Below are positions 3,658-37,866 of a stretch of 64,000 nt of DNA, one piece after another (the first letter of the stretch is position 1; each line of letters opens with the position of its first letter). The translations under genes and the position numbers were made by a program. The stretch comes from an uncultured Chthonomonadaceae bacterium. Lineage in GTDB: Bacteria; Armatimonadota; Chthonomonadetes; Chthonomonadales; Chthonomonadaceae. The notes beneath the pieces were generated by a model, which did not search any database, had not been told where the DNA came from, and saw only the letters and a program-made list of their open reading frames with translations. The DNA lies in contig CAWIEK010000051.1 of the NCBI GenBank assembly GCA_963835065.1, positions 63,799 to 127,798 on the forward strand. Direction: 5' to 3'.

Positions 3658-3766
3658 GTGGGTGTTCCGGTGTTCGGGTATTCAGGGAATACAAAAGTGC
3701 CAGCGTATAGTTTACGCAACAAGGCCAACACCCGAACACCGGAACACCCGAACACCCGAATACCTG
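3658..3766. repeat. Inverted pair of 8-mer tandem repeats (GTGTTCGG / CCGAACAC)
   Basis: gtgggtgttccggtgttcgggtattc ... aacacccgaacaccggaacacccgaacacccgaatac, immediately after the lacI stop. Confidence 0.85.
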
Positions 3767-3786
3767 CCACCGAAGGAGGGTTTGCT

Positions 3787-4596
3787 ATGCAGCGACGCAA
3801 AGGATTTACACTGATCGAACTGCTCGTCGTGATTGCCATCATTGCGATCTTGGCGGCTATATTGTTCCCCGTGTTCGCGCAGGCGCGTTCCAAAGCGCGT
3901 CAGGCCAGTGACTTGAGCAACATGAAGCAGTTGGGAACGGCGATGCTGATGTACGTGCAGGATTACGACGAACATTATAATCCGACGGGCAACGGCAACG
4001 GCGCGATTTGCCCCGGCGAACCCAGCGCATCCTGGGACCTCTGGCCCGCGCTGCTGTACCCGTATGTCAAAAACGGACAGGTGTTCATTTCGCCGCAGTT
4101 CAAGGCCGAAGACAACCTTTACGGGACAACCTGGTACTGCCACGCGCACCTCCAGCCCATGCTCCTTAGCGGCAAATTCTACGTGTCCTACATGATGAAC
4201 AGCTTTGAAACGTGGAGCTGGCAAGGCGGCACGGTCTGGAAGAACGCCGGGGATCATTACGGCTTCCGCTACAACCCGCAGGACGCGGTTGGGCTGGCGC
4301 AGGTTTCGCAGCCGGCAAGCACCATTCTGCTGACCAACGGCATTTATACGGACATCGGCTGGGAACCCTTCACCGACTATTACGCGCAGGGCACTCCGAA
4401 CACGCCGGGCGTCACGTATGTCGGCAAGGACTACACCGCCAAAACCGCGCAGCAGGGCGGCCCGTTCGCGGAGCGCGTCAATCTTACCTGGGCCGATGGA
4501 CACGCCGGCTCCCGCAGGTGGGGAACCCTGAATCCCGGCCTGTGGATCGTTCAGGACGATAAGGACGCCTGGACCAATCCCTACGTCGGGCACTGA
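3787..4596 (+). CDS. DUF1559-type prepilin N-terminal cleavage/methylation protein
   Basis: [45 protein letters not shown]-terminal [11 protein letters not shown] gaaggagg upstream. Confidence 0.93.
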
Positions 4597-4653
4597 TAGT
4601 CTCACATTCCTCAAGTCTCAAACTTTCGGGTCGCAAACTTTCAAGGAGTACCC

Positions 4654-4875
4654 ATGATGCGCGTTGAAATCTCTCGAAGATGCGGGGTTTTTGCCCTCCT
4701 GCTTGCCACAAGCCTGCTGTGCCCCGGATGCGGCGGCAAGGGCGCGGGCGATACGGTTCCTTCGCCGCCGCGGGAACTCGTGGACAAAAGCTTTCATCCG
4801 CCCACAAATGGAGGCCCGCCCATGCCTGCGCCTGCCACATCCGGCAAATCCGCGCCGACGTCCGCCGGAAAGTAA
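4654..4875 (+). CDS. Small putative lipoprotein
   Basis: SD aaggag; signal peptide ending LLCPG-C, Pro-rich tail; follows the DUF1559 gene. Confidence 0.7.
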   Translation: MMRVEISRRCGVFALLLATSLLCPGCGGKGAGDTVPSPPRELVDKSFHPPTNGGPPMPAPATSGKSAPTSAGK

Positions 4876-4940
4876 GGGACGCGCGACTGCTCTTTTTCCC
4901 AACCCTCCTCTCAACTTTGGGAGGAGGGAACAATTCTATT

Positions 4941-6140
4941 ATGACCCTCTTTATAAACAATTTTCTGCTGCTTAAACTGCTCGCTTCACATTTTGTTGCC
5001 GTCGCGCTTCTGGCGGCTGTGGCGGGCATAGCAGTAACGGCTTCCCTGCCTGCCAAAGCGGACGAACCTCCACACAGCTTTCTTGCGGGCGCGGACTGTT
5101 CGCATGTGGGCTTCTTCGAGGCGCTTGGCAAAACTTACCGCGAAGATGGCGTTGTTGCCGATCCTTTTCTTATTTTGAAGCGGGACGGCATCAATTGTGT
5201 GCGCCTGCGGCTTTTTACGGGCAGTGATGAGTACGCGAAGCAGGATTCCTACAACACCATCAATAATCTGACGTACACGGTTCCCCTGGCCGCGCGGGTG
5301 AAGAAAACCGGTTTGCAGTTCCTGCTGGATTTTCACTATTCCGACACCTGGGCCGACCCCGACAAGCAGGCCAAACCCGCCGCGTGGAAGGAATTATCCT
5401 TCGACCAACTGGAACAGCGTTTGTTCGAGTACAATCGGGACTGTATCGCCGCTTTTAAGAAGGCGGGGGCGATGCCGGATTACGTGCAGGTGGGCAATGA
5501 AATCACGCCGGGAATGTTGTGGCCGGACGGGAAAGTGGGCGGCAAGTTCGACACGCCGGAGCAGTGGCAGAAATTGGGACGCCTGCTGAAAGCCGCCATT
5601 CGGGGCATTACGGAAGCCGCCGGGAGCGACATGCCCAAACTGGTCATTCACATTGACCGGGGCGGCGATTGGAAGGCGACGCAGTGGTTTTTCGACCATT
5701 TGCGGGAACAGCAGGTGCCGTTCGACATCATCGGCGAAAGCTACTATCCCTTCTGGCACGGCAGTCTCGAAGCCTTACAAACCTGCCTGGTCAATGCCGC
5801 GCAACGCTACCAAAAGCCGGTCATGGTTGCCGAAACCGCCTTTCCCTGGGACACGAAATCGCGGGGCGACAAGGCGATTGTCGGGATTATGCCGGGCAGG
5901 GAAGGCCAAGTCCAATTCATGGAGAAGCTGGCGGCGATTGTGAAGGGTGTGCCGAACGGCAGGGGAATGGGCATCTTCTACTGGGCGGCGGAGTTTCAGC
6001 CGCTTGCCGGCACCGGCCTTGCGGGTTTTGAGAACAGTTCCTTCTTTGATGAGGACGGCAACGCCCTGCCCGTCCTCAAAGCGTTCGGGCAGCTTTCCAA
6101 ACCGACTTCCGTTTCCGGCAAATCCTTACCCGGCAAGTGA
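4941..6140 (+). CDS. Endo-beta-1,4-galactanase (GH53)
   Basis: GINCVRLRLF, LDFHYSDTWADP, VQVGNE, SYYPFWHG, VAETAFP motifs; signal peptide. Confidence 0.93.
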   Translation: MTLFINNFLLLKLLASHFVAVALLAAVAGIAVTASLPAKADEPPHSFLAGADCSHVGFFEALGKTYREDGVVADPFLILKRDGINCVRLRLFTGSDEYAKQDSYNTINNLTYTVPLAARVKKTGLQFLLDFHYSDTWADPDKQAKPAAWKELSFDQLEQRLFEYNRDCIAAFKKAGAMPDYVQVGNEITPGMLWPDGKVGGKFDTPEQWQKLGRLLKAAIRGITEAAGSDMPKLVIHIDRGGDWKATQWFFDHLREQQVPFDIIGESYYPFWHGSLEALQTCLVNAAQRYQKPVMVAETAFPWDTKSRGDKAIVGIMPGREGQVQFMEKLAAIVKGVPNGRGMGIFYWAAEFQPLAGTGLAGFENSSFFDEDGNALPVLKAFGQLSKPTSVSGKSLPGK

Positions 6141-6161
6141 ACATAACTCGGAATAATTTCT

Positions 6162-7562
6162 ATGCGATTGAAATGGTTCGGCGCAGGCATAATTCTCTTT
6201 TGCGGCGTCCTGCTGTGTCTACGGCTTCTGCGGCCTGGATTGCCTGCTGCAGACGGGGCTGCGTCCGGTCTGTCGGATGTTCCGGCGGGGCGTCTGCAAG
6301 GCGCGATTACGGTTTGGAGCTGGAACACGGCGGCCAAAAGCCTGCAAAAATTGGCTCCGGTCTTTGAGGGGAAACAGCCTGCCGTCAAGGTCAATGTGGA
6401 TATGACGGGAGCGCGGATGCAAACGCGGCTGATGCTGTCGCTCGCCTCCGGGGTGGGAGCGCCCGATGTGTCGCAGTTTGAACTCACGGACGCGCCGCGC
6501 TATATCGCCACAGGTCGCCTGACCGACCTGACGCCGGTTGCGGCCAAATATAAAAGTCTATTTCCCGCGTCGCTGTGGGACAACTGCACGTGGAAGGGGC
6601 GCGTATACGCTATCCCCTGGGACATCGGCCCCTGCGCCGTTTTTTACAAGTGCGACCTGTTCCGGCGGTATGGCATTGACCCGGCCAAAATCGAAACGTG
6701 GGACGATTACATCAAGGCCGGGAAAGAGATTTTGCGCAGATCGGGCGGACACACCAAGATGCTGCCGCTCGGCTCCAACTCCCTGCGCCCGATGTTTGAG
6801 ATGCTGATTCAGCAGAGCGGCGGGCAAGTGTTCGACGATCAGGGGCGCATTGCCATCAATTCCCCGCAAACCCGGCAGGCATTATCCATTCTCCAGAAGA
6901 TGCGCGGGGCAGGCATCTGTTCCGATATTGCGCTGTGGAGTCAGGAGTTTCTCGCGGGGCTGAACGACGAGAGCATTGCCACTTATCCCATCGCCATCTG
7001 GTTCGCCGGGACGATCAAGGACACGGTTAAGGATTACGCGGGCAAAAAAGCCGAATGGGGCGTGTTCCGCCTGCCTGCCATCACTTCGGGCGGGCTGCGT
7101 GTCGCCAATCTGGGCGGCTCCGTCCTGGTCATTCCCGCGCAGTGCCGCAACAAAGCGGCGGCATGGGCGTTCGTGGAATATGCGCTGTGTACGCGGGAAG
7201 GCCAGATCGCGCAATATCGCAACATGAGCCTGTTTCCCGCGTTTTTGCCCGCCATGCAGAGCCGGGATTTGGACGAGCCGGACCCGTTTTTCGGCGGGCA
7301 GCGCATCGTCCGGCTGTTCGCAACGGACGTGACCAAAATCACGCGGCTGAACCGGACACCGGCCTGGGGCGAAGCGATCCGCTATCTGGATCAGGAACTC
7401 AGCCATTGGGCGGCAAGCGGAATGGCAAGTGAGGGCTTTTTTGAGAACCTGGAGCAGAAAATGCAGCATCGGCTCGGCTTGCCGCTTGCGCCCCAACCGC
7501 CTGCCGCGCCCCCACTTGTTCCCAATAGCGGACTTGTTCCCACTGCCGGGAGGCTGCCATGA
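6162..7562 (+). CDS. Sugar ABC transporter substrate-binding protein
   Basis: ITVWSW, GAPDV, YAIPWDIGP, GGSVLVIP, AAWAFVEY. Confidence 0.93.
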   Translation: MRLKWFGAGIILFCGVLLCLRLLRPGLPAADGAASGLSDVPAGRLQGAITVWSWNTAAKSLQKLAPVFEGKQPAVKVNVDMTGARMQTRLMLSLASGVGAPDVSQFELTDAPRYIATGRLTDLTPVAAKYKSLFPASLWDNCTWKGRVYAIPWDIGPCAVFYKCDLFRRYGIDPAKIETWDDYIKAGKEILRRSGGHTKMLPLGSNSLRPMFEMLIQQSGGQVFDDQGRIAINSPQTRQALSILQKMRGAGICSDIALWSQEFLAGLNDESIATYPIAIWFAGTIKDTVKDYAGKKAEWGVFRLPAITSGGLRVANLGGSVLVIPAQCRNKAAAWAFVEYALCTREGQIAQYRNMSLFPAFLPAMQSRDLDEPDPFFGGQRIVRLFATDVTKITRLNRTPAWGEAIRYLDQELSHWAASGMASEGFFENLEQKMQHRLGLPLAPQPPAAPPLVPNSGLVPTAGRLP

Positions 7563-8473
7563 ATCCCATCCCGAACAGCAGGGACTTGTGGCGCTACCGC
7601 CATTTCTATCTGTTTGTCGCGCCCTTCTTCGTGCTTTTCGGCGTGTTCGGCCTGTACCCGCTCCTGTTTTCGCTGTATCTCAGCTTCACGCAATGGGACG
7701 GCATGACCGCGATGCAGTGGGTCGGGCTGTCCAACTTCCGGGCGATGCTCAATGACGAAATCCTCTGGCGGGCGCTGTGGAACACGGTCACAATCGGCCT
7801 GCTGTACGTGCCGCTGATGATGATTCTGGCGTTTCTGTTTGCGCAGGCGCTCAACACGCAATGGCTGAAAATGCGGGCGTTGTACCGCGCGGCGTTTTTC
7901 CTGCCCTGCGTCACGCCGATGGCGGTTATCGCCGTCGTTTTCGGCCTGATTTTCAGTGCGGAAAAAGGCGTTCTGAACTACGTTTTGCAGCAAGTGAACC
8001 ATCTGCTGCCGTTTTTGCATTTGCAGCCGATTCCCTGGCTCACGAGTGAAGCCTGGTCGAAAGTGGCGGTCGCTATTCTGGTGGTGTGGCGCTGGACAGG
8101 CTACAATATGGTGCTGATGCTAGCGGGCTTGCAGGGGATACCGGGCGAGTATTATGAGGCGGCGGAAGTGGACGGCGCTTCGTCGTGGCAGCGCGTGGCG
8201 CATATCACGCTGCCCTTAATGCGGCCCACGTTCCGCTTTTGCGGGCTGCTGTCGCTGCTTGGAACGATTTATATGTTCGATGAGATTTTCGTGCTTACGG
8301 GCGGCGGTCCGGGAACCTCTTCCACCAACATCGGCATGTACCTGTTCAACATTTCCTTCAACGATTTCCGCTTCGGCTACGCTTCCTGCGTGGGCTATAC
8401 GGTCGCAACGGTTGTGTTTGCGGGTACGCTGCTGGCGTCGCGCCGCAATCGCCGGGAAGGGAAAACGGACTAG
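7559..8473 (+). CDS. Sugar ABC transporter permease (MalF-like)
   Basis: EAA loop YYEAAEVDGAS..HITLPLM; multiple TM segments. Confidence 0.95.
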   Translation: MNPIPNSRDLWRYRHFYLFVAPFFVLFGVFGLYPLLFSLYLSFTQWDGMTAMQWVGLSNFRAMLNDEILWRALWNTVTIGLLYVPLMMILAFLFAQALNTQWLKMRALYRAAFFLPCVTPMAVIAVVFGLIFSAEKGVLNYVLQQVNHLLPFLHLQPIPWLTSEAWSKVAVAILVVWRWTGYNMVLMLAGLQGIPGEYYEAAEVDGASSWQRVAHITLPLMRPTFRFCGLLSLLGTIYMFDEIFVLTGGGPGTSSTNIGMYLFNISFNDFRFGYASCVGYTVATVVFAGTLLASRRNRREGKTD

Positions 8474-8475
8474 CG

Positions 8476-9468
8476 ATGCAAACCGGCCCTTCCCCTCAAG
8501 ACACAACGCAAATAAACCAACACGCAGCCACGCAAGGAACAATCACGCAAGACCTGACTCACGGCACAATGCAAGGGACAACACAAGGGGAAATGAAAGG
8601 CGCAATGCGGCAGGCAAAACCGGGCGCAGCGAAATGGACATTACAGCGGAAAATCGGGCGCGGCCTGCTGTATGTCGCGTTGAGCGTCCTGGCGCTTGTC
8701 TTCATCTTCCCGTTCTACTGGCTGCTGACCTCGGCCTTCAAAACGCAGGCGCAGATTTTCACCGTTCCGCCCCAATGGCTGCCCCTGCCGATCACCGGGC
8801 AAAACTTTGTGGATTTGTACCGGGAAACAAACCTGCCCCGCGCCTTCCTCAACTCGGTCATTATTTCGGGCGGGCATGTCGGCCTGTCGTTGTTTTTGTG
8901 TTCGCTGGCGGGGTATGCGTTTGCCAAGTTTCCGCAGGCTCCGGGACATGGCAAATTGTTCGCCTTTGTGCTGGCGACCATGATGATACCGGGCGCGGTG
9001 ACGCTGATCCCCACATTCCTCATCCTCGTCAACCTGCACTGGATCAATACCTACTGGGCTATGATTATTCCGGGCGCGGCGGGCGCGTTCGGCATCTTCT
9101 GGATGCGGCAGTACATGAGCGCCAATGTGCCTGACGATCTGGTTCATGCCGCCCGGATTGACGGCTGTACGGAGTTCGGCATTTATTACCGCATTGCCCT
9201 CCCGATTGCCAAACCCGCACTGGCCGCGTTGGGCATTATGCAGTTAATCGGTTCGTGGAACAACCTGATGTGGGCGTTTATCGCGCTGCGCACACAGGAT
9301 ATGCTCACGCTCCCCGTCGTCATCTATCTGCTGCAAGGCGAGATACGAACCCCCTACGGCATGTTGATGGCGGGCGGCCTGCTGACAACCCTGCCCCTCG
9401 TACTCGCGTTCCTCTTCTTCCAAAAACACTTCATTTCCGGCATTACGGCAGGAGCGATCAAGCAGTAG
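8476..9468 (+). CDS. Sugar ABC transporter permease (MalG-like)
   Basis: LVHAARIDGC..IALPIAKP, QKHFISGITAGAIK; low-complexity TQG-rich N-terminal extension. Confidence 0.95.
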   Translation: MQTGPSPQDTTQINQHAATQGTITQDLTHGTMQGTTQGEMKGAMRQAKPGAAKWTLQRKIGRGLLYVALSVLALVFIFPFYWLLTSAFKTQAQIFTVPPQWLPLPITGQNFVDLYRETNLPRAFLNSVIISGGHVGLSLFLCSLAGYAFAKFPQAPGHGKLFAFVLATMMIPGAVTLIPTFLILVNLHWINTYWAMIIPGAAGAFGIFWMRQYMSANVPDDLVHAARIDGCTEFGIYYRIALPIAKPALAALGIMQLIGSWNNLMWAFIALRTQDMLTLPVVIYLLQGEIRTPYGMLMAGGLLTTLPLVLAFLFFQKHFISGITAGAIKQ

Positions 9469-9575
9469 GGCCGGCTTATAAAAAGCCGGTTATTAGGCCT
9501 GCGGCCAATCGTCCTGCGGACGAAGAACTGCCGGCGTATTTACGCTGGAGTGTAATCGCGCTGATGCTATTCAAT

Positions 9576-11484
9576 TCAGGCAGTTTGCGGATTTGTCAAA
9601 GCAGTACCCAAATGGGAAGATACTCGACGGCGCGGCAGGGCAATGGCGCTTGTGGCCGCGCCGATTCCCATGACAAGGCACAGGGGCATAATCAGCAGCC
9701 AGCCGACATAAGGAATCAGGCAGGACAGGGACGCCAGCAGGCTTCCCCCAAGCAGTCTGCCAAGCGTTTCGGCCTTGCCGGTTTTTTGCCATAGTTTTCG
9801 CGCAGTCCAACGCGCCCAACTGCCCGCCCCTGCCGCGCCCATTCCGCACAAACTTAACAGCAGAATTGCGCCCATTGCCTGCGCGATGGGATGGAAGGAG
9901 AAAATCAAGCCGGATATTGCGCAAGGTATAAGGATGCAAACCAACAGCCCGCGCCCGAAGCAACGCCCGGTTTGGGTGGCAAGCGCATCCGCTCCGCGCT
10001 GTGTCGCCGCAGGGAGAAGCAATGCCAACATTCCGGGAAGCAGCAGCAAAAATCCCAACGCGAACACGCCCTTCGCCAGCAACGCGCCTGGACGCGCGAT
10101 TCCCTCCATAAACAACCCGGCCACGCCATCAACGCTCTTTTCCAGTATTGCCGCGCCCAATGTGGAGCGCTTTTCGCGGTGATGGGCGGGCGGGCGTACC
10201 GAGGCCGCGCCCAGATGCCCCAGATTGGCGATCCACAAAATGCCGTTGTCAATGTCACTGCTGACGTAAACATTAATCAGAACGCCCGCCATTTCATTGA
10301 CGTAATCTTCGCCGTTCGTCACCCGCTTGGGCGGATGGTTCGGGTTGGCGGGATTGTCGGCGGAATTGTCGTGCGTCCATTCGCCGTGCAGAATGGTTCC
10401 TTTGGGCAGGCGGTAGCGCTCCTTAACATGGTACGTAGACTGCCAGTTGAAATCCCAATCGTTGATCTTGATAATCGGTTTGGTGGAATGGTCCGGCAGT
10501 TCGGCCCACAATTTGCAGGTTTTGCCGATGAGGTGCATGTGTTCGTAGATGCTTTCCACTTCGACATCTACGGGGAGGGTATACGTGGTTTCCTCCAGAT
10601 GGTCTTTTTCTCCCGGCGCAATGTCCAAGTTCAAAACGCCCATTGAGATCAGCGACCCGATTTTCACGGGGGGCTTGTCGGTGAAGTACAGCCCGACCAA
10701 CGTTTGATCCGTTTCTTCCCTGCCGTCGGGGTGGTAGTGCATCCCGAACACGAGGTCAATGTCTTTGGGCAGGACGGCGGACGCATCTGTGGGCAGAACT
10801 TCCGCGCCCATTCCCGGCACATACCCCGGCAGCCCGCCGAACGGCAAAAATCCCGGCCCGCCAAAACTGACATAGCCACTCCCCGGCCCGCCCTGCTGCG
10901 CTTCCAACTGCTTCGCCTTGCCGCTTTTGTCCATCATCAGGGTGACATGGTGAACGATGCGCCGATTGCCGGGGCGGATTTCCGTAGCGCGAACGTACTT
11001 GTCGGCAGGCAGATGCAGGGAAACCACAAAACTCCGCGTCACGTCCTTGCCTTCGGCGGGAACGGTATACGGTTTGGGCATCTTGAGGATCATGTCGGGC
11101 TTGCCCAACTGCCAGCCGTCCGGGAATTGCGGCGCGGGCGGCAGGTCGGACGGATTGCCTTCGGGCGCTCCACTTCGCGGCCCACTGCTGTATCAGCGTC
11201 CTTTGCTTGTCCGTCAGCCGCCGCTCGTGCTGAAACTCGCCGTAGCCGGCTTCCAGTTTCCAGGGCGGCATCAGGCGCTTTTCGGTGACAATGGCAATTT
11301 GTTTTGCCCGTTTTGCCGCGTCGCGGTACGTCAGCAGGGAAAAAGGAGCCACTTCGTCAGGCCGGTGACAATTGGAGCAGTTATTGAAGAGAATGGGCGC
11401 AATGTCTTTGCTGAACGTAGGCGTGTCGGCGCGCGCCGGTATTGCCTGCGCGATCATCCCGGCCAACACGAGCGGAAGCAACAT
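9576..11484 (-). CDS. Heme-c/copper type II monooxygenase-like protein with C-terminal membrane domain; one frameshift near 11175
   Basis: Signal peptide, CSNCH (ORF 10756..11667 frame), then IVHH, MHYH, HMH, NEM (ORF 9576..11108 frame). One extra base in GCGAAGTGGAGCG breaks the WAASGAPEG seen in the paralog. Confidence 0.8.
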
Positions 11485-11663
11485 GCGCCCACCGGTCAAT
11501 GCCGTTTGTTTATTCGCGCTCGGAGTGGTGGCGCAACGCGAAGCGTCCGTGCAATAACATTTTAATCTTTTTGCGCGGCTATGGTAACGAAGTCCGCCTG
11601 CGCGGACTGACTGGCGGAACCGCGTAATGATTTCGCAGGTTTGCGTTGCGACGGCAATGAGAT

Positions 11664-13142: not shown

Positions 13143-13183
13143 CACGCGGAACTCCTTGAAAGCAAGCAAACAAAAATGGACAA

Positions 13184-13199
13184 GTAAGTAAACACTTAC
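13184..13199. promoter_or_regulatory. Probable TetR operator palindrome
   Basis: GTAAGT-AAAC-ACTTAC, just downstream of a minus-strand TACAAT (13209-14) and between tetR and the monooxygenase genes. Confidence 0.6.
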
Positions 13200-13267
13200 C
13201 ACATACCTATTGTAACATGAGATTCGCCCAAAGTACACATCTTCCCATTATTTTTTCGGAATTTTGT

Positions 13268-13873: not shown

Positions 13874-13944
13874 GCCTTTCTAAATGACAAGGCAAGGAAC
13901 TCCTCGCGCAGCGTGGTTTGGCCCTGTCATTGTGCTTCTCTACG

Positions 13945-14154
13945 TTACTTTTCCGTGCTAACAGCGTCTACGGATTTGATGCCCTTCGCTCGTTTGTAGT
14001 TGTCTATCGCCCTTTGCCACTCAGGACTAATCTCCTCCGTAGCATTTTCAAATTGGTCGGTAAACCGGCGGATGAGTTCACGCCGACGCTTTGCCTGACG
14101 CTTCCTTGTCTCAGCAAGAGCAGCAATATCGTCTGGTTTAACTTCTACTTCCAT
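13945..14154 (-). CDS. Small hypothetical protein (69 aa)
   Basis: Own promoter TTGACA-16-TATACT (14217-14190) and SD aggaagga upstream of the ATG. Confidence 0.6.
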   Translation of the reverse strand: MEVEVKPDDIAALAETRKRQAKRRRELIRRFTDQFENATEEISPEWQRAIDNYKRAKGIKSVDAVSTEK

Positions 14155-14279
14155 TATTCCTTCCTAAAAATATATAATCGCAATAGTTTAGTATAGCAGA
14201 AGCCATCCAATTGTCAAGGGGTATGCAGAAGAATCTTGCTGTATGGCTCTATTACCGCTGACGCGCTTGATTGAAATGT

Positions 14280-17874: not shown

Positions 17875-17900
17875 ATAGTTGATAGTTGATAGTTGATAGT
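17875..17900 (+). repeat. 7-mer tandem repeat (GATAGTT)n
   Basis: atagttgatagttgatagttgatagt directly after the serpin stop. Confidence 0.8.
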
Positions 17901-23402: not shown

Positions 23403-23471
23403 TGATGAGTGCTGAGTGATGAGTGCTGAATGGGAATTCTATTCACCACTCAGCACTCATCATTCATCACT
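23401..23471. repeat. Inverted pair of 7-mer tandem repeats (TGAGTGM / KCACTCA)
   Basis: aatgatgagtgctgagtgatgagtgctgaat ... attcaccactcagcactcatcattcatcact. Confidence 0.85.
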
Positions 23472-23483
23472 ACTGGCAACACC

Positions 23484-24362
23484 ATGACCGCTTTCACCCG
23501 CAACACCCGCCTGATATTGGAGATGGTGAAGTTCGAGCATACGATCTTTGCCATGCCGTTCGCGCTGATTGCCGCGCTGTTGGCGGCCCGACACGCGCCG
23601 CATGGATTGCAGGCCGGGATAGTATTGTGGATTGTTATGGCAATGGTCGGGGCGCGGAGCGCGGCAATGGCTTTCAATCGGCTTGCCGACGCGGAAATAG
23701 ACCGCGCCAATCCCCGCACCGCCACGCGCCATATTCCCGCCGGGCTGTTGTCCCGCGTTCAGGTTGGGGCATTTCTGCTGTGCAGCGTTATCGTGTTTGA
23801 ACTCGCCGCGTGGGAATTAAATCCGCTTTGTTTGTATCTGTCGCCGGTTGCCCTGCTTGCCGTTTTGGGTTACTCCTATACCAAACGGTTCACAAGCCTG
23901 TGCCATTTGTTTCTCGGCTTCGCTATCGGCATTGCGCCCATCGGGGCGTGGATTGCCGTTTTGGGAAGATTGGACATCGTTCCCCTGCTTCTCGGCCTCA
24001 CCGTAATGCTGTGGATCGGCGGCTTCGACATCATTTACGCGCTGCAGGATTATGATTACGACTGTAGCGCTGCCCTGTTTTCCCTGCCAAAGCGCCTGGG
24101 CAAAGCCAACGCCCTGCGCGTGTCCCGCCTGATGCACTTCGCAGCCGTCAGTTTATTGTTTACCATCGGCGTTTTGTCCGGTCTCCACCTGCTTGCTTTC
24201 ATCGGCATCGGCATTGCCGCCGCCCTGATTGCCTGGGAGCAGAGTCTCGTCAAGCCCGACGACCTTTCCCGCGTCAATCTCGCGTTCTTCACGCTCAACG
24301 GTTGGGTCAGCGTGAGTTTGTTTGTGTTTGTGTTGCTGGACAAAGTAGTGAGTAGCCAGTAG
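23484..24362 (+). CDS. UbiA-like polyprenyltransferase (MqnP-type)
   Basis: KFEHTIFAMPFA, AMAFNRLADAEIDRANPRT, YSYTKRF, FDIIYALQD. Confidence 0.92.
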   Translation: MTAFTRNTRLILEMVKFEHTIFAMPFALIAALLAARHAPHGLQAGIVLWIVMAMVGARSAAMAFNRLADAEIDRANPRTATRHIPAGLLSRVQVGAFLLCSVIVFELAAWELNPLCLYLSPVALLAVLGYSYTKRFTSLCHLFLGFAIGIAPIGAWIAVLGRLDIVPLLLGLTVMLWIGGFDIIYALQDYDYDCSAALFSLPKRLGKANALRVSRLMHFAAVSLLFTIGVLSGLHLLAFIGIGIAAALIAWEQSLVKPDDLSRVNLAFFTLNGWVSVSLFVFVLLDKVVSSQ

Positions 24363-24465
24363 TCAGTAGTCAGTAGCTGTCCTACTCCCTGCTTCTTTAC
24401 TTGTCAAAACTCTGAATAACGCGGCATTCTCTACTGACTACTGACTACTGGCTACTCACTACTTT
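24342..24465. repeat. Inverted pair of 7-mer tandem repeats (AGTAGTC / GACTACT), ~35-bp perfect arms
   Basis: aaagtagtgagtagccagtagtcagtagtcagtag ... ctactgactactgactactggctactcactacttt; contains the ubiA stop. Confidence 0.92.
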
Positions 24466-24466
24466 C

Positions 24467-28482: not shown

Positions 28483-28865
28483 ACACTAATGCCGTTCATG
28501 TAAGGATTCGTAAGTCTATAACTTCCCGCTGATTCGGGAAGTCGAGCTTTGCTAACGGGAAGTGGGGAAAGCGTTAGACAAGCGGCAGGCAGAGAAAAGA
28601 GCAGGAAAAAGCAATATGTAGAGTCATCGTCGAAATCTTGGCAATGCAGCGCTTCCAGCCCGATGTCTCGTTGTGTCAAGTTGTAGGAGAGAGGCGTCGT
28701 GGCCTCAGCAGCGTCAGGGCGGACGGGAGGAGTGGGACATGGGCCTGTACCTCCTTTGCTAAATAGTAGACACTTGTACTATTTAGACAGGGAAATGGGG
28801 CAAAAGGTTCACTGTTTTCGCGCTGTGAAGCTTTTTTTATCTTTTTTGTCTTCATCTGTGTGAAC

Positions 28866-31207: not shown

Positions 31208-31210
31208 TGG

Positions 31211-31331
31211 CCCTCACCCCAACCCCTCTCCCAAAAGCGTGGGAGAGGGGCTAATCTTAAATTTACCCAACCCCTCTCCCACAAAACGTATTTCCAAAGC
31301 GAAGCAGAAATACGAAACGCGGGGAGGGGCT
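31211..31331. repeat. CCCTCTCCC/GGGAGAGGG palindromic repeat element (two units)
   Basis: ccctcaccccaacccctctcccaaaagcgtgggagagggg ... cccaacccctctccc ... ggggaggggc; related copies near 4896-4932 and 47682-47731. Confidence 0.75.
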
Positions 31332-31337
31332 AAATAG

Positions 31338-32108
31338 TTAAATCTCCCGGTGTCCTTCGGCGTCTTCCATTGCGCCTACGCTAATTTTGATGTCGGCGCG
31401 CTCTTCGATTTTGGCGATTTTGCCGTCCCGAATCCAGACGACGCGATCTGAAACCTCAACCATTTTGTAATCGTGCGTGGCCGAGATGATGGTGACGCCC
31501 TCGTTGCGGTTTAGTTCACGCAGCAGGGCGATGATCTCTTCACCGGTCTTCAAGTCAAGGTTGCCGGTTGGTTCGTCCGCCAGAACGATGGCCGGACGGT
31601 TGGCAAGCGCGCGGGCAATGGCAACGCGCTGCTGCTGTCCACCGGAAAGCTGTGTCGGACGATGATGTAGACGGTGTCCCAACCCCACTTTGTTCAGAAT
31701 TTCGATTCCGCGCTCAATTCCTTCGTCCGTAGACATACCCGCAAAGATCGTCGGCAGCGTGACGTTCTCCAAAGCGGTCATCGCGGGCAGCAGATTGAAT
31801 GTCTGGAAGATGTAGCCGATTTTATGGCAGCGCAGGTACGCCAGTTCGCTCGCGCTGAGTTGTGCCATATCCACATCGTCAATAAACACTGACCCCTCAT
31901 CCGGCCTGTCCAGCCCCCCGATAGCGTTGAACAGCGTGGACTTGCCCGACCCCGACGGCCCCATGATGGACAGATACTCGCCCTTGCGAATATCCAAATC
32001 CACGCCGTTAAGCGCGCGCAGCACCTCGTCGCCCATCTTAAATATCTTGACCAGCCCCTTGGTTCGCACCACGTATTCTACGCGCACCGCGCGTTCCATT
32101 GTTACCAT
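31338..32108 (-). CDS. ABC transporter ATP-binding protein (LolD/MacB-like)
   Basis: [46 protein letters not shown]. Confidence 0.97.
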
Positions 32109-32124
32109 AGAAAATCCTTTCGGA

Positions 32125-32250
32125 TAGTAGTCAGTAGTCAGTAGTCAGTAGTCAGTAGAGAAACCCATTCCTGTAAGCTGTATCTATGTTGCACAACTCT
32201 GTGTAAGCGGGCATTTCTACTGACTACTGACTACTGACTACTGACTACTT
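32125..32250. repeat. Inverted pair of 7-mer tandem repeats (AGTAGTC / GACTACT)
   Basis: tagtagtcagtagtcagtagtcagtagtcagtag ... ctactgactactgactactgactactgactact. Confidence 0.92.
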
Positions 32251-32252
32251 CC

Positions 32253-32900
32253 CTATATCGTACTGCGCAGCGCGGCAGCGGGCGGCATTTTGGCGGCTTG
32301 GATAGCGGGGGGGATGGCCGCAACGAGGGTGATGCCCAGGCCGATGCCCATGGATTGCAGCATTTGAATCAGCGTGCCGTACCAGAACCCGCCGTCCAAT
32401 GTGCCCATTCCGCTGGAAAACACATGCACTAAGGTGATGATAAACCAGCCCAAAAACCACCCGGCGGCGGACGCGATCACGCCCATCAAGCCCGCTTCGA
32501 TGAAAAAGAGGGTGACAATAAAGCGGTCCAGCGCGCCCAGGCACTTCATCGTGCCGATTTCCTTGTAGCGTTCCGTGACCGACATCAGCATGGAGTTCAT
32601 AATGCCGACAAAACACACCAACAGCGCCATGATCGCCAGCCAGGACTGACGGTGCCCGGCAGCGACGACTTCGGCCAGCGCGTCCGCGTCGTTACTGGTG
32701 GGAACCAGCGCGAACAGCATCCCGGTACGCACGGAACTGAAGAACGCGATGCCGAGCAGGATGCCGCCGGCGGTAATCAGCGAACGCGCAAAGCGTATTT
32801 TGATGCTTTTCATGCTGATCTGCCACGCGCGGCTGAACGGCAGCGTGATTTGCTGCTGTGGCGCGTTCGTCGGCATTTTGTGTAGGGTTTCCACGCTCAT
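32253..32900 (-). CDS. Small FtsX-like ABC permease lacking a periplasmic domain
   Basis: RSLITAGGILLGI, GIMNSMLMSVTERYKEIGTMKCLGA, PAIQAAKMPPAAALR. Confidence 0.92.
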   Translation of the reverse strand: MSVETLHKMPTNAPQQQITLPFSRAWQISMKSIKIRFARSLITAGGILLGIAFFSSVRTGMLFALVPTSNDADALAEVVAAGHRQSWLAIMALLVCFVGIMNSMLMSVTERYKEIGTMKCLGALDRFIVTLFFIEAGLMGVIASAAGWFLGWFIITLVHVFSSGMGTLDGGFWYGTLIQMLQSMGIGLGITLVAAIPPAIQAAKMPPAAALRSTI

Positions 32901-32924
32901 GGTTGTTCTCCGATTATTTCTTAT

Positions 32925-33380
32925 TTATTTCTTATTGCTGTCTTTGTCCGCTTTTTCTTTTTTGTAGAAGCCAATGAACTTGCGCTCATGCAGCATTTGC
33001 AGGAACATGGTCACGGAAACTTCCGCTTCCCGGCGGTTCATTTTATACTGCTTGCTTGTCTTTTGCACAACGGCTTCAATGGTATGGCTGCCGTCGCATA
33101 ATTCCCACACGTAGCCGCCAACCTCGTCCAGTTCCACTTTGCGCTCGGTGGGCGCGCGCAGCCAGCGCGCCATAATGCGGGTAATGCGGCTCACCTGATC
33201 GTTTTGCGGCACAATCAGGATGGTTTCGCCGCTTTCGCGCTTTTCAAAGGTCAGGCTCGGATGCCGCAGGGGGCGCAGGCGCAACGTGGCCTGCCGGTCC
33301 ACTTCCGGCGGGCGCAGCTTCAGGAACGGCAGGTACTTGCCCAATCCCGAATACAGTTTATTTTTCAGCGGCGCGATCAT
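32925..33380 (-). CDS. PqqD-family (RiPP recognition element-like) protein
   Basis: KVELDEVGGYVWELCDGSHTIEAVV...EAEVSVTMFLQMLHERKFI matches the PqqD pattern. Confidence 0.8.
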   Translation of the reverse strand: MIAPLKNKLYSGLGKYLPFLKLRPPEVDRQATLRLRPLRHPSLTFEKRESGETILIVPQNDQVSRITRIMARWLRAPTERKVELDEVGGYVWELCDGSHTIEAVVQKTSKQYKMNRREAEVSVTMFLQMLHERKFIGFYKKEKADKDSNKK

Positions 33381-33381
33381 A

Positions 33382-34533
33382 TTACGAGGCTCCCTGCTCG
33401 TCTTGCGGCTCTGCCGGATCGGACTCTATCTTGTCGGGACGATGGCATACGCAGCGGCTGACAACATCTTCCCACAAACCGACGGTCTGCTTTTGATGCA
33501 GCACCTGAACCGCGTAGATTTTGTTGGAGTCTTCGCAGTTCCAGATGCCGCTTTCAAAGCGGGTCGGGAAACGCCGCAGGGACACTTTCGAGTCCCGCAA
33601 AGCGCGTACTTTGCTCCATAAGGGCAGTGCGCCCAGGTAGCGCAGGCTTGGGTGTCCATGCACGGTATGCGCGTCGTCCAATGTCAAAGATTTGAGGGGA
33701 ACGAGCGCGTTGTTGCGCAGCCAATCGCCGAGCGAGAACTTTTTGAGCAGCATGTTCGCCAATCCCCAGCGATCCAGCACAATGCGCTCGCCGCCCCGCG
33801 CCCATTCCAGATGCAGATGCCCGGACAGCAGTTTCTGCTCTTCCAGCCGAAAATCGCTCGGCACATCCATTTGCAGATCGTACAGCGCCCAACGGTCATA
33901 ACCGTCAATGGCATGATCCTGCAAGGTGGAAAACAGCCGCGCCGCGATGTTGCTGATTGCGCTCTGGTCTTTCGCCATGCCGACAACCTGCGCGACAACC
34001 ACGCGGTCACACGTTTTGCAGTGCCAGATTTTGCCCTGCGCCCTGCCCTCGCCCGTCCAGGAAAAATGGATTGCGGTACGCTCGTCCTCCTTGCCTTCCG
34101 TTCTTTCCGGCTTGATGTTGCTTTCAAATGTCGCTTTGGCTTTTTTGGCCTGCTTTTCCGTGTCTTTGAGAATGCGTTCCAGATTGCCGCGCAGGTCGAG
34201 TTTCGCGCTCGTCGCGGCAGGCGCGGGACGCTTCAGCCAGTGCCGAACGAACGGCGCAACCAGCGAGTACGCGGTTATCGTGCTGTCCTGCTGCGGCTTG
34301 GCGGCATTAAGCCAGCGCACCTGTACCGTCAGCGTGGACTCTCCGGGCGCATCCACGCGCAAATACCCGTTCTCCCGATCCATCGAAAACCCGGTCAGGT
34401 TCCAGTCCGGCGGCAGCGTGAAACGAATCCCCTGCCAGCCTATCACAGTTGGCTGCGCGGATTCTTCCGGCTCTGTATTTTTTCGGCGCGGCTTCTCGGT
34501 TCTATTCGGTTTCGTTTCCAGTTCAGCAGGCAT
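33382..34533 (-). CDS. Hypothetical protein, apparent internal duplication
   Basis: IGWQGIRFTLPPDWNL and WALYDLQMDVPSDFRL open two similar halves; abuts the pqqD-like gene. Confidence 0.8.
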   Translation of the reverse strand: MPAELETKPNRTEKPRRKNTEPEESAQPTVIGWQGIRFTLPPDWNLTGFSMDRENGYLRVDAPGESTLTVQVRWLNAAKPQQDSTITAYSLVAPFVRHWLKRPAPAATSAKLDLRGNLERILKDTEKQAKKAKATFESNIKPERTEGKEDERTAIHFSWTGEGRAQGKIWHCKTCDRVVVAQVVGMAKDQSAISNIAARLFSTLQDHAIDGYDRWALYDLQMDVPSDFRLEEQKLLSGHLHLEWARGGERIVLDRWGLANMLLKKFSLGDWLRNNALVPLKSLTLDDAHTVHGHPSLRYLGALPLWSKVRALRDSKVSLRRFPTRFESGIWNCEDSNKIYAVQVLHQKQTVGLWEDVVSRCVCHRPDKIESDPAEPQDEQGAS

Positions 34534-34562
34534 GTTTACTGTTGCTATGTGAAGCTCTACTA

Positions 34563-35399
34563 TTATTTAGGAGCGACGGCTTCTACGTGGCCGTCGAGAT
34601 ACAAAATGTTGTTGCGCCCACCGTGCCGTCCCGGTTTGGGCAGGCTGGTAACGGCATCCTGCGCGTTTTTGCTCAGGTTGGTTGAATCGTACAGTAGCGG
34701 CGTTTTGGCGGCGTTAGGCAAGGTGTTGAGCGGCTTGCCGTTCAGGTTCAGTTTCTTGCCGCCGAGCGCGGCATTGTACGCATAGCCGAACTTGTCGTCA
34801 TGCCCGTTCGACACAACCGGGCAATGCAGCCACGCATCCTGCGGAACCCGCGACGTGAAATCCGTGTTTTCTTCCCACTTGTCGGCGGGCGGCAGCGCGT
34901 CGTTGAGTTCCGCGTACTGCGTAAAAGCGTTGTACAACCCTTTCAGGTTTTCCGGGCACGTCTTGTTGGTTTCCGGCTTGTAATCATCTTTGGGCTTGAG
35001 TAAACCTGCCTGCTGTAGAACGTCCAATACTGGATTGACATTCGCCACCTGCGCCGCAACCATTGCCAGAATATAGACCATACTGCCGATTACCAGTTTG
35101 CGGAGTGTGTCGGTACGCTTCTGCTGTCGCATCAAACCTGCCAAAAAGCCACCCAAAAGCGCTACCCACAGTTCAAATGTCAGCAATATCGCCTGCCGAA
35201 TGAGGAGCGGACCGCTAATTGGGGAAGCATGAACGGCAGCAAGCAAGCCAATCAACATCACAGGGCCAAACACGCCAATGCCGACACACCCCGCAATAAT
35301 GTTGCGCGTCCACCTTCCAATGGCAACTCCGAAGACGAACATCAGCAGTCCAAGCACAACTAAAACTACAACAGCAATGCGAATGTATGCAGCAGCCAT
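34563..35399 (-). CDS. Membrane protein with C-terminal H-X9-DG domain
   Basis: Four TM segments, then TCPENLKGL..LHCP..RHGGRNNILYLDGHV. Confidence 0.8.
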   Translation of the reverse strand: MAAAYIRIAVVVLVVLGLLMFVFGVAIGRWTRNIIAGCVGIGVFGPVMLIGLLAAVHASPISGPLLIRQAILLTFELWVALLGGFLAGLMRQQKRTDTLRKLVIGSMVYILAMVAAQVANVNPVLDVLQQAGLLKPKDDYKPETNKTCPENLKGLYNAFTQYAELNDALPPADKWEENTDFTSRVPQDAWLHCPVVSNGHDDKFGYAYNAALGGKKLNLNGKPLNTLPNAAKTPLLYDSTNLSKNAQDAVTSLPKPGRHGGRNNILYLDGHVEAVAPK

Positions 35400-35521
35400 A
35401 TTTCGTACACAATTCCGTGCGCAGCGTGTTCAGGTATAGGATGCGACGGGATGAATTCCTTCCTCACCTGTAACGTCCAACAGCAACGCTGTCCTAACAC
35501 GCATATCGTTCAAAAACGTTT

Positions 35522-35612
35522 GTAGGGGCGTGATTTATCACGCCCACAATCTACCGGTTCCAAGCGAGGGCGCAATAAATTACCCAGAGGGCGCAATAAA
35601 TTGCGCCCCTAC
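35522..35612. repeat. GTAG-type REP/REPIN element
   Basis: GTAGGGGCGTGATTTATCACGCCC ... GGGCGCAATAAATTGCGCCCCTAC with a partial internal duplication. Confidence 0.85.
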
Positions 35613-35640
35613 GAATTCCCATTGGAACGGTATTGCGCCG

Positions 35641-35678
35641 AACACCCAACCACCAACCACCAGCCACCAATCACCAAC
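35641..35678 (-). repeat. 7-mer tandem repeat (TGGTGGT-like), single arm
   Basis: aacacccaaccaccaaccaccagccaccaatcaccaac next to the OPT-gene stop. Confidence 0.7.
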
Positions 35679-35679
35679 G

Positions 35680-37731
35680 TCAGAACGGCAAGTAGTTGAC
35701 CGATTTAGCGATCAAGGCGAGGGCGATAGCCGCCATTGCGATCAGGCCCGTGCCGCAGGCGAAACCGGCGAGCAGAACCGGCGTGTACATGCGCCAGTTG
35801 TCCAGGCCGAAACGCTTGGAGAAATACTTGCGTCCGAGCCACGCGCCGATAAACGTTGGGATCACGTCATGCGGCAATGCGCCCGTGCCGCCGACGAAGC
35901 CGTAGAAGAACAGGACGGGCAGCTTGAAGAACCCGAACACGGCGTACAGACCCAACCCGGCAATCACGCCGCCCGCCACGCGGTTGAAGTTGATCGCCTC
36001 CTTGACCCACGTAATGCCGCCCTGCTGCTTGTTGACCGTATTCCACAGCGCCTGGAACGTGGCGTGAATCGGCCAGAACTTGGCGGCATACGGGTGCTGC
36101 GACGAGGGTATCTGGCTGGAATGCCAGAAGAACGCCCAGAACACGAAACTTGCCGACGTAATCACGAACAGCATCAGAATTTCGGCTTTGATGATACTGC
36201 CGAACTTGGTTCCGGTCAGTTCAAACTCGCGGAAACGCTGCGCGAACGCGCCATAATCGTTGAGCGGGATCGGCACGTACCAGATGTCCACGTACTGGTA
36301 GCCCGACTTCATAATCGAGACTTCCTTTAAGTACGGGAACGACACGCCCGAACCTGTCAGGCCGATCATACGGGCAGACACGTAACTGTTGACGGGCGAC
36401 CAGATCAGGCCGTAAAACACCAGTATCCACAGCGGGAAATTGTGGTTTTCGTTGGGATGCTCATTGCCCTGAATGTTGAGCATCACCTTGCACAACGCAA
36501 TGTAAATCACCGAAATGGACAGCCAGATAGCAACCGGGATACCTAAGTGAAGATCGCCTCTGCCTTTCGGCACTTTCAGCATCAGGCCGCGATCCCGCGC
36601 TTCGCGCCGCAGATTGCCGATAGACTGGAACACGCTGTAAAAGCCAATCAGGGCAATCGCCACTTGCAGGCCGATGCCAACGGACAGCCAGAACTTGATA
36701 TTCGTTGCCTGCTGCGTATACAAAGCGTCCATGCCCGGCGTCCAGCCGTTTGATTCGGACGTGCCGAACGCGCCCGCTTTCTGCAAAAACGGAGCCAGCC
36801 CGATTTTACAGATCAGTGAGGCAATCAAAGACCCCTGCACGATATGGTACGGGATGATAAAGCCCGTCAGCACTTTGGTCAGGTCGCCGGAAATGCCGAC
36901 AACCGCGCCTGGCAGTATGCTTTCCGTGTTCGTCGTCAAATCAAAGAACGGAATCGGGATCAGCGTAAAGGCTTTGTTGAACACGACGCCCGTAAAAACC
37001 GGAATGGCGATGTAGAAAAAGCCGAAGATCAGGCCGATCACGCTGCCGATGGAGAACACGCGCCAGCGCCACGATTCCTCTTTGCTGGCCGCTTCCGCAA
37101 GGGCTGTCGCGCCCGAAGCGGCAACCGGAGCCATTGGAAACGGCAGGCGTTCTATGTCGGACGTTATACGGAACAAAAAGTAACCGGAACTCATCCAGTT
37201 CAGGCGTCCCATCACTTCGCCGAACAGGAGCAGCATGATGGGCCAGAACCAGTCGGGATGCAGGAACGTGCGCTGCTGGAGCGCAACGGACGAGGCAGGC
37301 GGCACGACCCAGCGCGGTATGTCTTTGGCGACAAGCCCCGCTTGCGGCGACGAGACAAAGTATTGGTTCCAGATCAGGGAACCGAACGGCCCGCCCGAAA
37401 TGCCTTTGGTCGCTTCCAGCCCGGTCAGCCCCGCCGCGATGTAGTAGAGCAGGTACACTTCCTGCCGTTTCAGGGGCAGGAAGGACCGCCGCATGATTTC
37501 GGCGAACAGGACAATCGTGACCCATTCCGCCGCCGGCCCCAAGCCCTGCCCCGCCACCAGTCCCAGGTACAGCGCGCCCGGCAGCATGATAAAGGCGACA
37601 AAGACGGCTCCAATCACGGTTTTGCCGCTGAAGCCCTCTTCAAACTGCATCGTCTGCCCGGTATCGCCTTCCTCGCGGGTTTCGGCTTCTACCTGCTGGC
37701 GTATTTGCGCAATCTCACTTGCTTCCGCCAC
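35680..37731 (-). CDS. OPT/YSL-like oligopeptide transporter-type membrane protein
   Basis: Many TM segments; YLGLVAG, IERLPFPMAPVAA..A, PVLLAGFACG; SD gaggag. Confidence 0.75.
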   Translation of the reverse strand: MAEASEIAQIRQQVEAETREEGDTGQTMQFEEGFSGKTVIGAVFVAFIMLPGALYLGLVAGQGLGPAAEWVTIVLFAEIMRRSFLPLKRQEVYLLYYIAAGLTGLEATKGISGGPFGSLIWNQYFVSSPQAGLVAKDIPRWVVPPASSVALQQRTFLHPDWFWPIMLLLFGEVMGRLNWMSSGYFLFRITSDIERLPFPMAPVAASGATALAEAASKEESWRWRVFSIGSVIGLIFGFFYIAIPVFTGVVFNKAFTLIPIPFFDLTTNTESILPGAVVGISGDLTKVLTGFIIPYHIVQGSLIASLICKIGLAPFLQKAGAFGTSESNGWTPGMDALYTQQATNIKFWLSVGIGLQVAIALIGFYSVFQSIGNLRREARDRGLMLKVPKGRGDLHLGIPVAIWLSISVIYIALCKVMLNIQGNEHPNENHNFPLWILVFYGLIWSPVNSYVSARMIGLTGSGVSFPYLKEVSIMKSGYQYVDIWYVPIPLNDYGAFAQRFREFELTGTKFGSIIKAEILMLFVITSASFVFWAFFWHSSQIPSSQHPYAAKFWPIHATFQALWNTVNKQQGGITWVKEAINFNRVAGGVIAGLGLYAVFGFFKLPVLFFYGFVGGTGALPHDVIPTFIGAWLGRKYFSKRFGLDNWRMYTPVLLAGFACGTGLIAMAAIALALIAKSVNYLPF

Positions 37732-37744
37732 ACACGTCTCCCTC

Positions 37745-37866
37745 TAGGCATTAGGCATTAGGCATTAGGCATTAGGACAATCCCCTTGTGCCGAGCCAAA
37801 CTGTGTATTTATATTCGAGGCATTTCAGGAGCGCCCTAATGCCTAATGCCTAATGCCTAATGCCTA
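37745..37866. repeat. Inverted pair of 7-mer tandem repeats (TAGGCAT / ATGCCTA)
   Basis: taggcattaggcattaggcattaggcattagg ... cctaatgcctaatgcctaatgcctaatgccta; contains the stop of the redoxin gene. Confidence 0.92.

Follow-up and report, generated by a model that had tools for sequence, protein, structure and literature searches.

Heptamer-armed foldback elements and four-helix-bundle cassettes in an uncultured Chthonomonadaceae bacterium

A family of short hairpin elements is described here from an uncultured bacterium of the Chthonomonadaceae, in a window of 64,000 nucleotides (contig CAWIEK010000051.1, positions 63,799 to 127,798, of assembly GCA_963835065.1) and in the rest of the same genome, called G000 below (8.0-Mb assembly, 92% complete). 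Each complete element consists of a G-rich arm of tandem 7- or 8-nt units, a loop, and a C-rich arm. Several described systems share parts of this design. According to published accounts, heptamer repeats are over-represented in bacteria from a cause that is not agreed, the origin of the intervening sequences (IVSs) of rRNA is not agreed either, and the function of the S23p/four-helix-bundle proteins is not known (PMC4692102, PMC4990558).

The closest relatives in print are the 70-75 inverted GGGAATC pairs of Xanthomonas, read as quadruplexes (PMC4692102). These, the GGGGAYT repeats of Nostoc (PMC4692102) and the TAACTGA repeats of the Beggiatoaceae (PMC4679880) form arrays of about four heptamers and, as in G000, the G-rich arm follows stop codons, the C-rich arm precedes starts, and stop-bearing units are kept out of open reading frames (ORFs). 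They differ in that one unit per organism is treated in those papers, with G-quadruplex or translational roles proposed for it. Between Xcc and Xac 83% of the heptamer sites are conserved (PMC4692102), whereas the units differ at shared sites in the genomes compared here. No link to a four-helix-bundle cassette or to rRNA was seen in the accessible passages of the two papers ('rRNA' and 'xcc0516' have no match in PMC4692102, nor 'intervening' and 'S23' in PMC4679880).

The IVSs of 23S helix 45 contain heptameric direct repeats in the 5' stem and an S23p/PF05635 ORF (PMC4990558). As in these, an extended stem-loop replaces a helix tip in the rRNA genes of the window, with sporadic presence among relatives and with one copy at what is presumably the position of helix 45. 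Here, however, a single operon has five inserts, two of them in 16S and none with an ORF, and the same design occurs about 1,500 times outside rRNA. The REPIN-RAYT systems (PMC3337134) also combine two inverted arms, a spacer that varies but has a preferred length, gene-less copies by the hundred, decayed single arms, and a few-copy partner gene tied to the same repeats. In G000, by contrast, tandem 7/8-mer arrays with dozens of unrelated units take the place of REP palindromes, the partner gene is no transposase, and many copies lie in frame in genes and in rRNA. Classical MITEs (miniature inverted-repeat transposable elements) differ as well, since here there is no target-site duplication, the loops are mostly unique, and the ends match a non-transposase cassette. 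The Rickettsia palindromic elements (PMC1166351) share the intergenic, in-frame (85 of 728 in ORFs) and RNA-gene (3) copies, but in G000 the arms are periodic, in-frame copies mostly lose the palindrome, and there is a candidate partner gene. The Ssn nuclease with its NTS/SRM repeats (PMC11893778) is likewise a small gene flanked on both sides by a hairpin repeat dispersed in hundreds of copies; Ssn is a GIY-YIG enzyme with shown activity, whereas the four-helix-bundle protein has no known catalytic role. A literature search, with most subscription papers and supplements outside its reach, returned none joining arms, cassette, rRNA and in-frame copies, and queries aimed at a four-helix-bundle/repeat link or at TIGR02436 gave no papers. 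Within the literature searched, only parts of the system are already in print. Added here are its scale, five inserts in one rRNA operon, arms that differ at 19 of 20 shared sites, and a hydropathy rule for in-frame arms.

Cassettes, gene-less copies and sites with differing arms

The elements are probably non-autonomous miniature foldback elements, gene-less versions of a repeat-armed TIGR02436/PF05635 cassette, which would have spread by DNA-level copying and been re-armed in place by recombination among copies. Three TIGR02436/PF05635 genes, all above the curated cut-offs, are present in G000. All of them lie elsewhere in the genome, in agreement with the first-pass annotation of the window, which had seen no partner gene there. 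It had stated that heptamer arrays flank four-helix-bundle genes and had proposed a search for ORF-containing versions of the elements; such versions exist, all three genes being bracketed by inverted arrays. In these cassettes the G-rich arm comes first, starting right at the stop of the upstream gene, and one cassette has the AGTAGTC unit that is also found in three elements of the window. One design, a G-rich arm, a loop and a C-rich arm with about five registers per arm, is common to the three cassettes and hundreds of gene-less copies. For the one cassette gene searched, the closest solved structure is 2GSC (E 1.5e-18), described as a homopentamer (PMC4990558).

Arrays were called genome-wide with our own array caller, and genes with our own hexamer-trained finder (6,538 predicted genes), which often sets starts too far downstream. 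G000 contains 2,495 arrays of period 7 and 430 of period 8, besides 35, 158, 135 and 33 of periods 5, 6, 9 and 10. On contig C49 there are 219 period-7 arrays against 0 after triplet shuffling, and these arrays are not due to chance. The arrays cluster into 1,549 elements totalling 99.7 kb (about 1.2% of the DNA), including 816 single detected arms. The genome-wide search for inverted heptamer arrays that had been suggested yielded 537 inverted pairs with a loop of at most 130 nt; their left arm is G-rich in 519, has equal G and C in 18, and is never C-rich. For 339 simple pairs the medians are 30-31 nt for the arm, 55 nt for the loop and 115 nt for the whole element, and the modal arm has 4.5 units. 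This corresponds to five AG registers in phase, the mode among the 314 arms that contain AG (152 and 164). The commonest units are AACTATC (295) and AATGCCT (235). The family is real and no artefact, because it recurs in the separately assembled sister genomes of the same genus, G001 and G002: array density per 100 kb (100 kb sampled each) is 26 in G000, 9 in G002 and 2 in G001. No arrays were found in samples of the relatives G005 and G013 (80 kb each) and G014 (20 kb).

A TIGR02436 gene exceeds the cut-off in 16 of 31 genomes; inspected by eye, about 10 of the 16 family matches from relatives are framed by mirrored arms. The single four-helix-bundle gene of G005 (L057) is flanked on either side by long arrays, and those of each side appear to make a hairpin of their own. 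In other phyla 80 loci were taken, 76 of them with both flanks; complementary arrays were detected at 28 of the 76, compared with 3.45 on average for swapped partners and 0 of 72 for far flanks. The G-rich array is upstream in all 28 pairs, whose period is 7 in 10, 8 in 5, 9 in 7 and 10 in 6. The link between arms and cassette is real but neither universal nor always heptameric. A plasmid search with one cassette matched the gene part alone, in 7 cyanobacterial plasmids. A scan for ORFs enclosed by arms, which was not exhaustive as it missed the C8 and C25 cassettes, found one four-helix-bundle gene, one GxxExxY gene, and ordinary genes between neighbouring elements.

The family resemblance of the cassette protein brings in RNA-mediated mobility, in which an Avd-like pentamer and a reverse transcriptase, as in diversity-generating retroelements, would copy hairpin RNA into DNA near stops. 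PF05635 resembles Avd (PMC10053308), a pentameric, positively charged barrel contacting RNA (bioRxiv 10.1101/2023.10.23.563531), the elements lie in operons and rRNA, and TAG is enriched even where the stop lies outside the arm. This explanation is nevertheless quite unlikely: G000 has only 2 reverse transcriptase genes, in contexts that look CRISPR-linked and retron-like by eye, none was found in G005, which has a cassette, and the elements are strand-symmetric, without a tail or target duplication. The two genes, L091 (G000:C49:681660-682277) and L095, lie on other contigs than the cassettes; one adjoins a Cas1-like ORF and the other is a retron-like reverse transcriptase (both by eye).

The history of single sites was followed in 264 kb of G002 and 235 kb of G001, picked partly for element-rich regions; 35 and 33 comparison rows became 30 and 28 distinct sites once duplicated loci were merged, and the looser array caller used for this has a background of 21 in 665 tiles in each congener. 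In G002, 13 sites have different units, 6 partly different and 1 the same, 5 are empty (one of these, in the ligase gene, is uncertain, lying at a frame break of that assembly), and 5 have no array; 19 of the 20 sites filled in both genomes differ in their repeat units. The corresponding numbers in G001 are 6 different, 2 partly different, 0 the same, 6 empty, and 14 with no array. Among 319 repeat-free loops, 42 similarities join 45 elements at unrelated flanks (0 in three shuffles; 11 further links with shared flanks were dropped); 35 of these links connect elements with the same unit, about 11% being expected at random, and 7 connect different units. One loop family has 19 members, including the window element at 32126-32249, and in one pair of loops that is 98% identical the unrelated flanks begin at the arm ends. 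Orthologous sites that are empty, related loops at unrelated sites, and shared sites whose arms differ in a sister genome are all observed. Of the first-pass view that these are non-autonomous remnants of a mobile system, mobility is supported; the elements look less like dead remnants than like a family under active reworking, with near-identical copies at unrelated sites and arms that differ between congeners.

It is most improbable that the elements arose in place without mobility, through slippage with hairpin template switching or selection for G-quadruplexes. Most loops are unique, tandem units invite slippage, and a quadruplex role was proposed for the similarly placed GGGAATC repeats (PMC4692102). 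Yet a limited set of units recurs hundreds of times, polarity is strict, loop families occur at unrelated sites, a GGG-containing unit is present in only 29 of 339 pairs, and the 98%-identical copy at unrelated flanks contradicts local origin, unless it is an assembly error.

Several observations weigh against spread from a four-helix-bundle cassette with re-arming in place. Arm differences at shared sites could reflect repeated insertion at hot spots. Only 2 loop pairs reach at least 90% identity and 274 of the 319 loops have no relative at unrelated flanks, so recent whole-element jumps must be rare. Target-site duplications were not detected (5-nt repeats at 9.7%, against 9.9% in swapped controls), and there is no shared terminal sequence beyond a leading AG or AGG. 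G005 has a TIGR02436 gene yet 0 arrays in its 80-kb sample; conversely, no TIGR02436 gene was found in G001, although arrays are present. At 48 of the 76 loci of other phyla no pair was detected, and only 10 of the 28 pairs have period 7. For the units AACTATC and AATGCCT the assembly, which is 92% complete, contains no cassette that matches. We know of no catalytic activity for the four-helix-bundle protein. Finally, none of 13 four-arm elements is cleanly nested, which leaves a route of nesting followed by loss unsupported.

Elements of the window and of its rRNA operon

In the window, where arrays were called with Tandem Repeats Finder (TRF), the elements are the following.

3661-3764, plus strand: hairpin with 8-mer arms (TRF arms 3661-3683 and 3727-3764), starting 13 nt past the stop of a LacI-family gene
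17875-17900, plus strand: single G-rich arm, unit AGTTGAT, directly after TAA 17872-17874
23403-23471, plus strand: heptamer hairpin between ubiX and a ubiA/mqnP-like gene (TRF arms 23403-23429 and 23443-23471)
24344-24463, plus strand: AGTAGTC hairpin at the ubiA-mqnA junction (TRF arms 24344-24377 and 24431-24463)
32126-32249, minus strand: AGTAGTC hairpin 3 nt past a TAG (TRF arms 32126-32158 and 32217-32249)
35646-35678, minus strand: single G-rich arm, unit GGTGGTT, just past the stop of gene 35680-37731
37745-37866, minus strand: AGGCATT hairpin starting with the gene's TAG (TRF arms 37745-37776 and 37835-37866)
47026-47124, plus strand: in-frame composite element in ORF 46386-48257, with A-rich, non-complementary arms and no hairpin
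52013-52122, minus strand: AGGGAAC hairpin in 23S, 131 nt replacing 8 model positions (Rfam 1893-1900)
52738-52859, minus strand: AGTAGTC hairpin in 23S, after Rfam position 1218
about 53834-53913, minus strand: degenerate hairpin in a 23S insert of about 150 nt, after Rfam position 312
55285-55318, minus strand: single G/T-rich arm that directly follows the 3' end of a tRNA and separates two tRNA genes of the spacer
55723-55790, minus strand: heptamer hairpin in 16S, 94 nt replacing 3 positions near Rfam 1441-1443
57030-57106, minus strand: AGGCATT hairpin in 16S, 94 nt replacing 5 positions near Rfam 207-211

All that the first-pass annotation had listed, five pairs and single arms at 17875, 35641 and about 55284, was recovered, in the sequence and by TRF, but its list was incomplete, as it lacked the five elements in the rRNA genes and the one in frame at 47026-47124. 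The five listed pairs fold with z from -5.5 to -14.2, and 0 of 200 shuffles fold as well. Two elements had been said to supply the gene's stop codon. At 24344-24463 this is so, the TAG of the prenyltransferase gene (24360-24362) lying inside the arm, with the gene length equal to that of orthologues; TAG 37864-37866 is pre-existing, since the orthologues in G002 and G011 also stop there. Downstream of the 3' arm of the hairpin at 3661-3764 a Shine-Dalgarno (SD)-like motif is followed by ATG at 3787. For the arm at 17875-17900 an exact partner unit was not found in the following 325 nt.

The comparison of empty and filled sites in relatives that had been called for shows several sites to be empty, so that positions are not fixed. 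The ubiX-ubiA site is empty in G002, G005 and G011, with other inserts in G001 and G015; the ubiA-mqnA site is empty in G002 and G015. After the same stop as the element at 32126-32249, G002 has other units and another loop, and the site is empty in G011. The G002 counterpart of 37745-37866 likewise follows the same stop with different units and loop. The arm at 35646-35678 adjoins a separate palindromic repeat and is absent in G002. For the in-frame element at 47026-47124, G002 has an insert of similar length with partly different units; a PDB search with ORF 46386-48257 gave no match. Palindromic repeats without heptamer arms occur at the gene junctions at about 35520-35615 and about 31210-31330, where relatives carry yet other hairpins; one of the two, GTAG-footed, is presumably REP-like.

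The window contains one rRNA operon, with 23S at 51004-54227, 16S at 55621-57316 and three tRNA genes in the spacer at 55079-55394. Against the Rfam models five inserts of about 90-150 nt were found, each an extra stem-loop in place of a helix tip or short segment and predicted to form a rod; for the two long copies in 23S the predicted rod is nearly continuous. The insert at 23S 1893-1900, which we take to be the tip of helix 68, is absent from G002 and 8 other relatives. After position 1218, presumably in helix 45, the classic IVS site, G000, G001 and G002 have three different units and other genera have an empty site. After position 312 the insert is shorter in G002 and is a non-repeat insert in G001. 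The 16S site at 1441-1443, assumed to be the tip of helix 44, is empty in G001 and 7 others and has another unit in G002, and the site at 207-211, taken as helix 10, has AGATATT arms in G002. In the features tested, a stem-loop at a helix tip and sporadic presence, the rRNA copies agree with IVSs. None of them contains an S23p ORF; the three TIGR02436 genes lie between protein genes. The 23S of G001 (L034/L035) has non-repeat inserts at two of the 23S sites, and that at 1893-1900 has the same length as the insert of G000 (156 nt between anchors), which suggests a decayed element kept at fixed size. A 16S copy on contig C37 of G000 lacks most of the hairpin in the helix-44 segment, which measures only 44 nt there as against 106 nt; this may be an intragenomic loss or an assembly error across the hairpin. 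Among the RNA datasets no run contained half of the words of the rRNA operon. RNA contigs on the operon (4 runs) and on 19.4-39.1 kb (4 runs) came from other organisms; their joints that skip inserts have other bases between, as in relatives with empty sites, and are uninformative on splicing or cleavage.

Elsewhere in the window, BLAST matches a non-coding repeat at about 28600-28850 to dozens of places in G002 and to some in G001. At 58077-59104 on the minus strand, a gene that looks by eye like a DNA methyltransferase is apparently split across two frames, which may be a frameshift or an assembly error.

Placement between and within genes

Complementary elements occupy 336 of 4,740 co-directional, 32 of 861 convergent and 23 of 866 divergent gaps. 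Between co-directional genes, 306 of 348 start at most 15 nt past a stop, where uniform placement would give 196; if only roomy gaps are counted, 72 of 108 start near the stop and 12 would be expected, an excess inflated by the late starts of the gene finder. Downstream of the 3' arm, 194 of 339 pairs have an SD-like motif (14 in the mirror control), and stops in all frames are present within the 5' arm in 202 of 339. TAG is the stop in 65 of 84 cases where the arm supplies it, and in 73 of 139 where the stop lies outside the arm, compared with 24% of other genes (p = 4e-13).

Such placement would suit host-domesticated RNA signals that terminate transcription, are processed by RNase III, stabilise operon mRNA, or uncouple the translation of neighbouring genes, and the nearly continuous rods of the two long 23S copies point the same way as the stop-proximal starts, the SD-like motifs and the all-frame stops. 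As an account of the family it is unlikely, however. Only 10 of 339 pairs have a U-tract behind the 3' arm (22 in the mirror control) and convergent gaps are not favoured, on which grounds the intrinsic-terminator reading was rejected; this also contradicts the idea, raised with the first-pass annotation, that the elements behave only as terminators. A terminator finder, which detects loops of 3-8 nt only, listed none at four elements. The sense strand shows no G-U bias (82 vs 99, p = 0.23), orthologous operon junctions function without elements, and 313 elements lie in coding sequences (CDSs), where pairing is mostly lost. The quadruplex reading, which needs four GGG tracts, was rejected on the rarity of GGG-containing units given above. 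By the tested features the elements are not REPINs, classical MITEs, terminators or G-quadruplex repeats. The first-pass annotation had named three findings that would speak against it, namely fixed sites, purely terminator-like behaviour, and absence of ORF-containing versions; none of the three was borne out.

The 313 in-frame elements lie in 263 of the 6,538 predicted genes (4%), and 253 of them have at least 50 well-scoring codons on both sides. Hosts include leucyl-tRNA synthetase (LeuRS) and DNA ligase, each a single-copy gene, as well as GlmS, acetyl-CoA synthetase, GcvP, GlpK, MnmG, QueG, MiaB, IspDF and ProB; one host first labelled 'TopA?' (topoisomerase) had no NCBIfam match, and the label was dropped. 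Against solved structures the inserts appear as clean gaps, of about 23 residues in LeuRS and about 50 in DNA ligase. In alignments of orthologues the repeat-derived inserts are absent from other genera. The loops concerned are of variable length, however, and at the sites in ligase and GlmS a few genera carry inserts of an unrelated kind. A single-sequence fold of DNA ligase with its insert was unusable (pLDDT 37).

The G-rich arm precedes the C-rich arm in all 137 CDS elements with both arm types, but the arms are complementary in only 21 of these 137, compared with 348 of 421 elements between co-directional genes. As read, 428 of 588 CDS arms are hydrophilic and 11 stop-bearing; for their complements the corresponding numbers are 25 and 161. 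Since one arm of a complementary pair would nearly always be T-rich or carry stops, proteins would retain mixed pairs only, and this would imply exchange of arms between families.

Possible mechanism and significance

A different enzyme, a GxxExxY nuclease or a Y1/RAYT transposase, might instead mobilise the hairpins, with the four-helix-bundle gene a passenger captured in the loop. GxxExxY (TIGR04256) matches number 3 genes in G000, 6 in G001 and 4 in G002, and in most of 11 loci they are bracketed by inverted 9-10-mer arrays (by eye); G001 has GxxExxY genes and no TIGR02436 gene that could be found, and G000 has 4 Y1 matches. This is very doubtful, since the GxxExxY arms have period 9-10 and the bulk of the arrays here period 7-8, Y1 genes also occur in the array-poor G005 and G013, and the layout of arms plus four-helix bundle recurs across phyla. 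None of 10 arm-enclosed gene sets contained a Y1 gene, in a scan that also missed two known cassettes and with the flanks of the Y1 genes not inspected.

The GxxExxY loci read were L207, L210 and L213 in G000 and L206, L208, L211, L212 and L214-L217 in G001 and G002; gene-less 9-mer hairpins are present at G001 junctions. In the window, a 10-mer array at 15323-15349 matches the 3' arm of a G002 GxxExxY cassette (L214) and is, judged by its sequence, a gene-less arm of a parallel nonamer/decamer system. A Y1/IS200-type transposase gene (PF01797, E 1.5e-22) lies at 39222-39674 on the minus strand.

If the elements are gene-less versions of the four-helix-bundle cassette, as we favour, copies would spread by DNA-level copying, their arms would be changed by conversion or recombination among copies, and selection would decide where they survive. 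Copies would last in the space that separates a stop codon from the following ribosome-binding site; at rRNA helix tips that are dispensable, where RNase III probably removes them as it does known IVSs; and in protein loops of variable kind if the arms read stop-free and mostly hydrophilic, which would require mixing arms of different families. The pentameric four-helix-bundle protein may bind the five-register arm with one subunit per repeat, and the putative arm-bound pentamer could align copies so that strands are exchanged, while host repair enzymes or some nuclease would cut and join. In a bolder form, which we put forward tentatively and consider possible at best, this would be a transposase-free selfish system in which an Avd-like ring of five subunits recognises arms of five registers and is behind both the spread to new sites and the wholesale rewriting of arms at old ones, including the concerted replacement of both arms in rRNA helices and the mixed arms that write hydrophilic loops into hundreds of proteins.

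G000 ties heptamer repeats, rRNA IVSs and the S23p/four-helix-bundle family together at very high copy number, and shows repeats as a route by which loops of 10-50 residues are added to essential enzymes. For direct tests the system offers a protein and a five-register ligand that are both defined, empty sites matched with filled ones, and places where the two arms have changed together. If true, a ring-reading system would explain the heptamer excess of bacteria, the origin of many rRNA IVSs, and the function of PF05635 in one mechanism.

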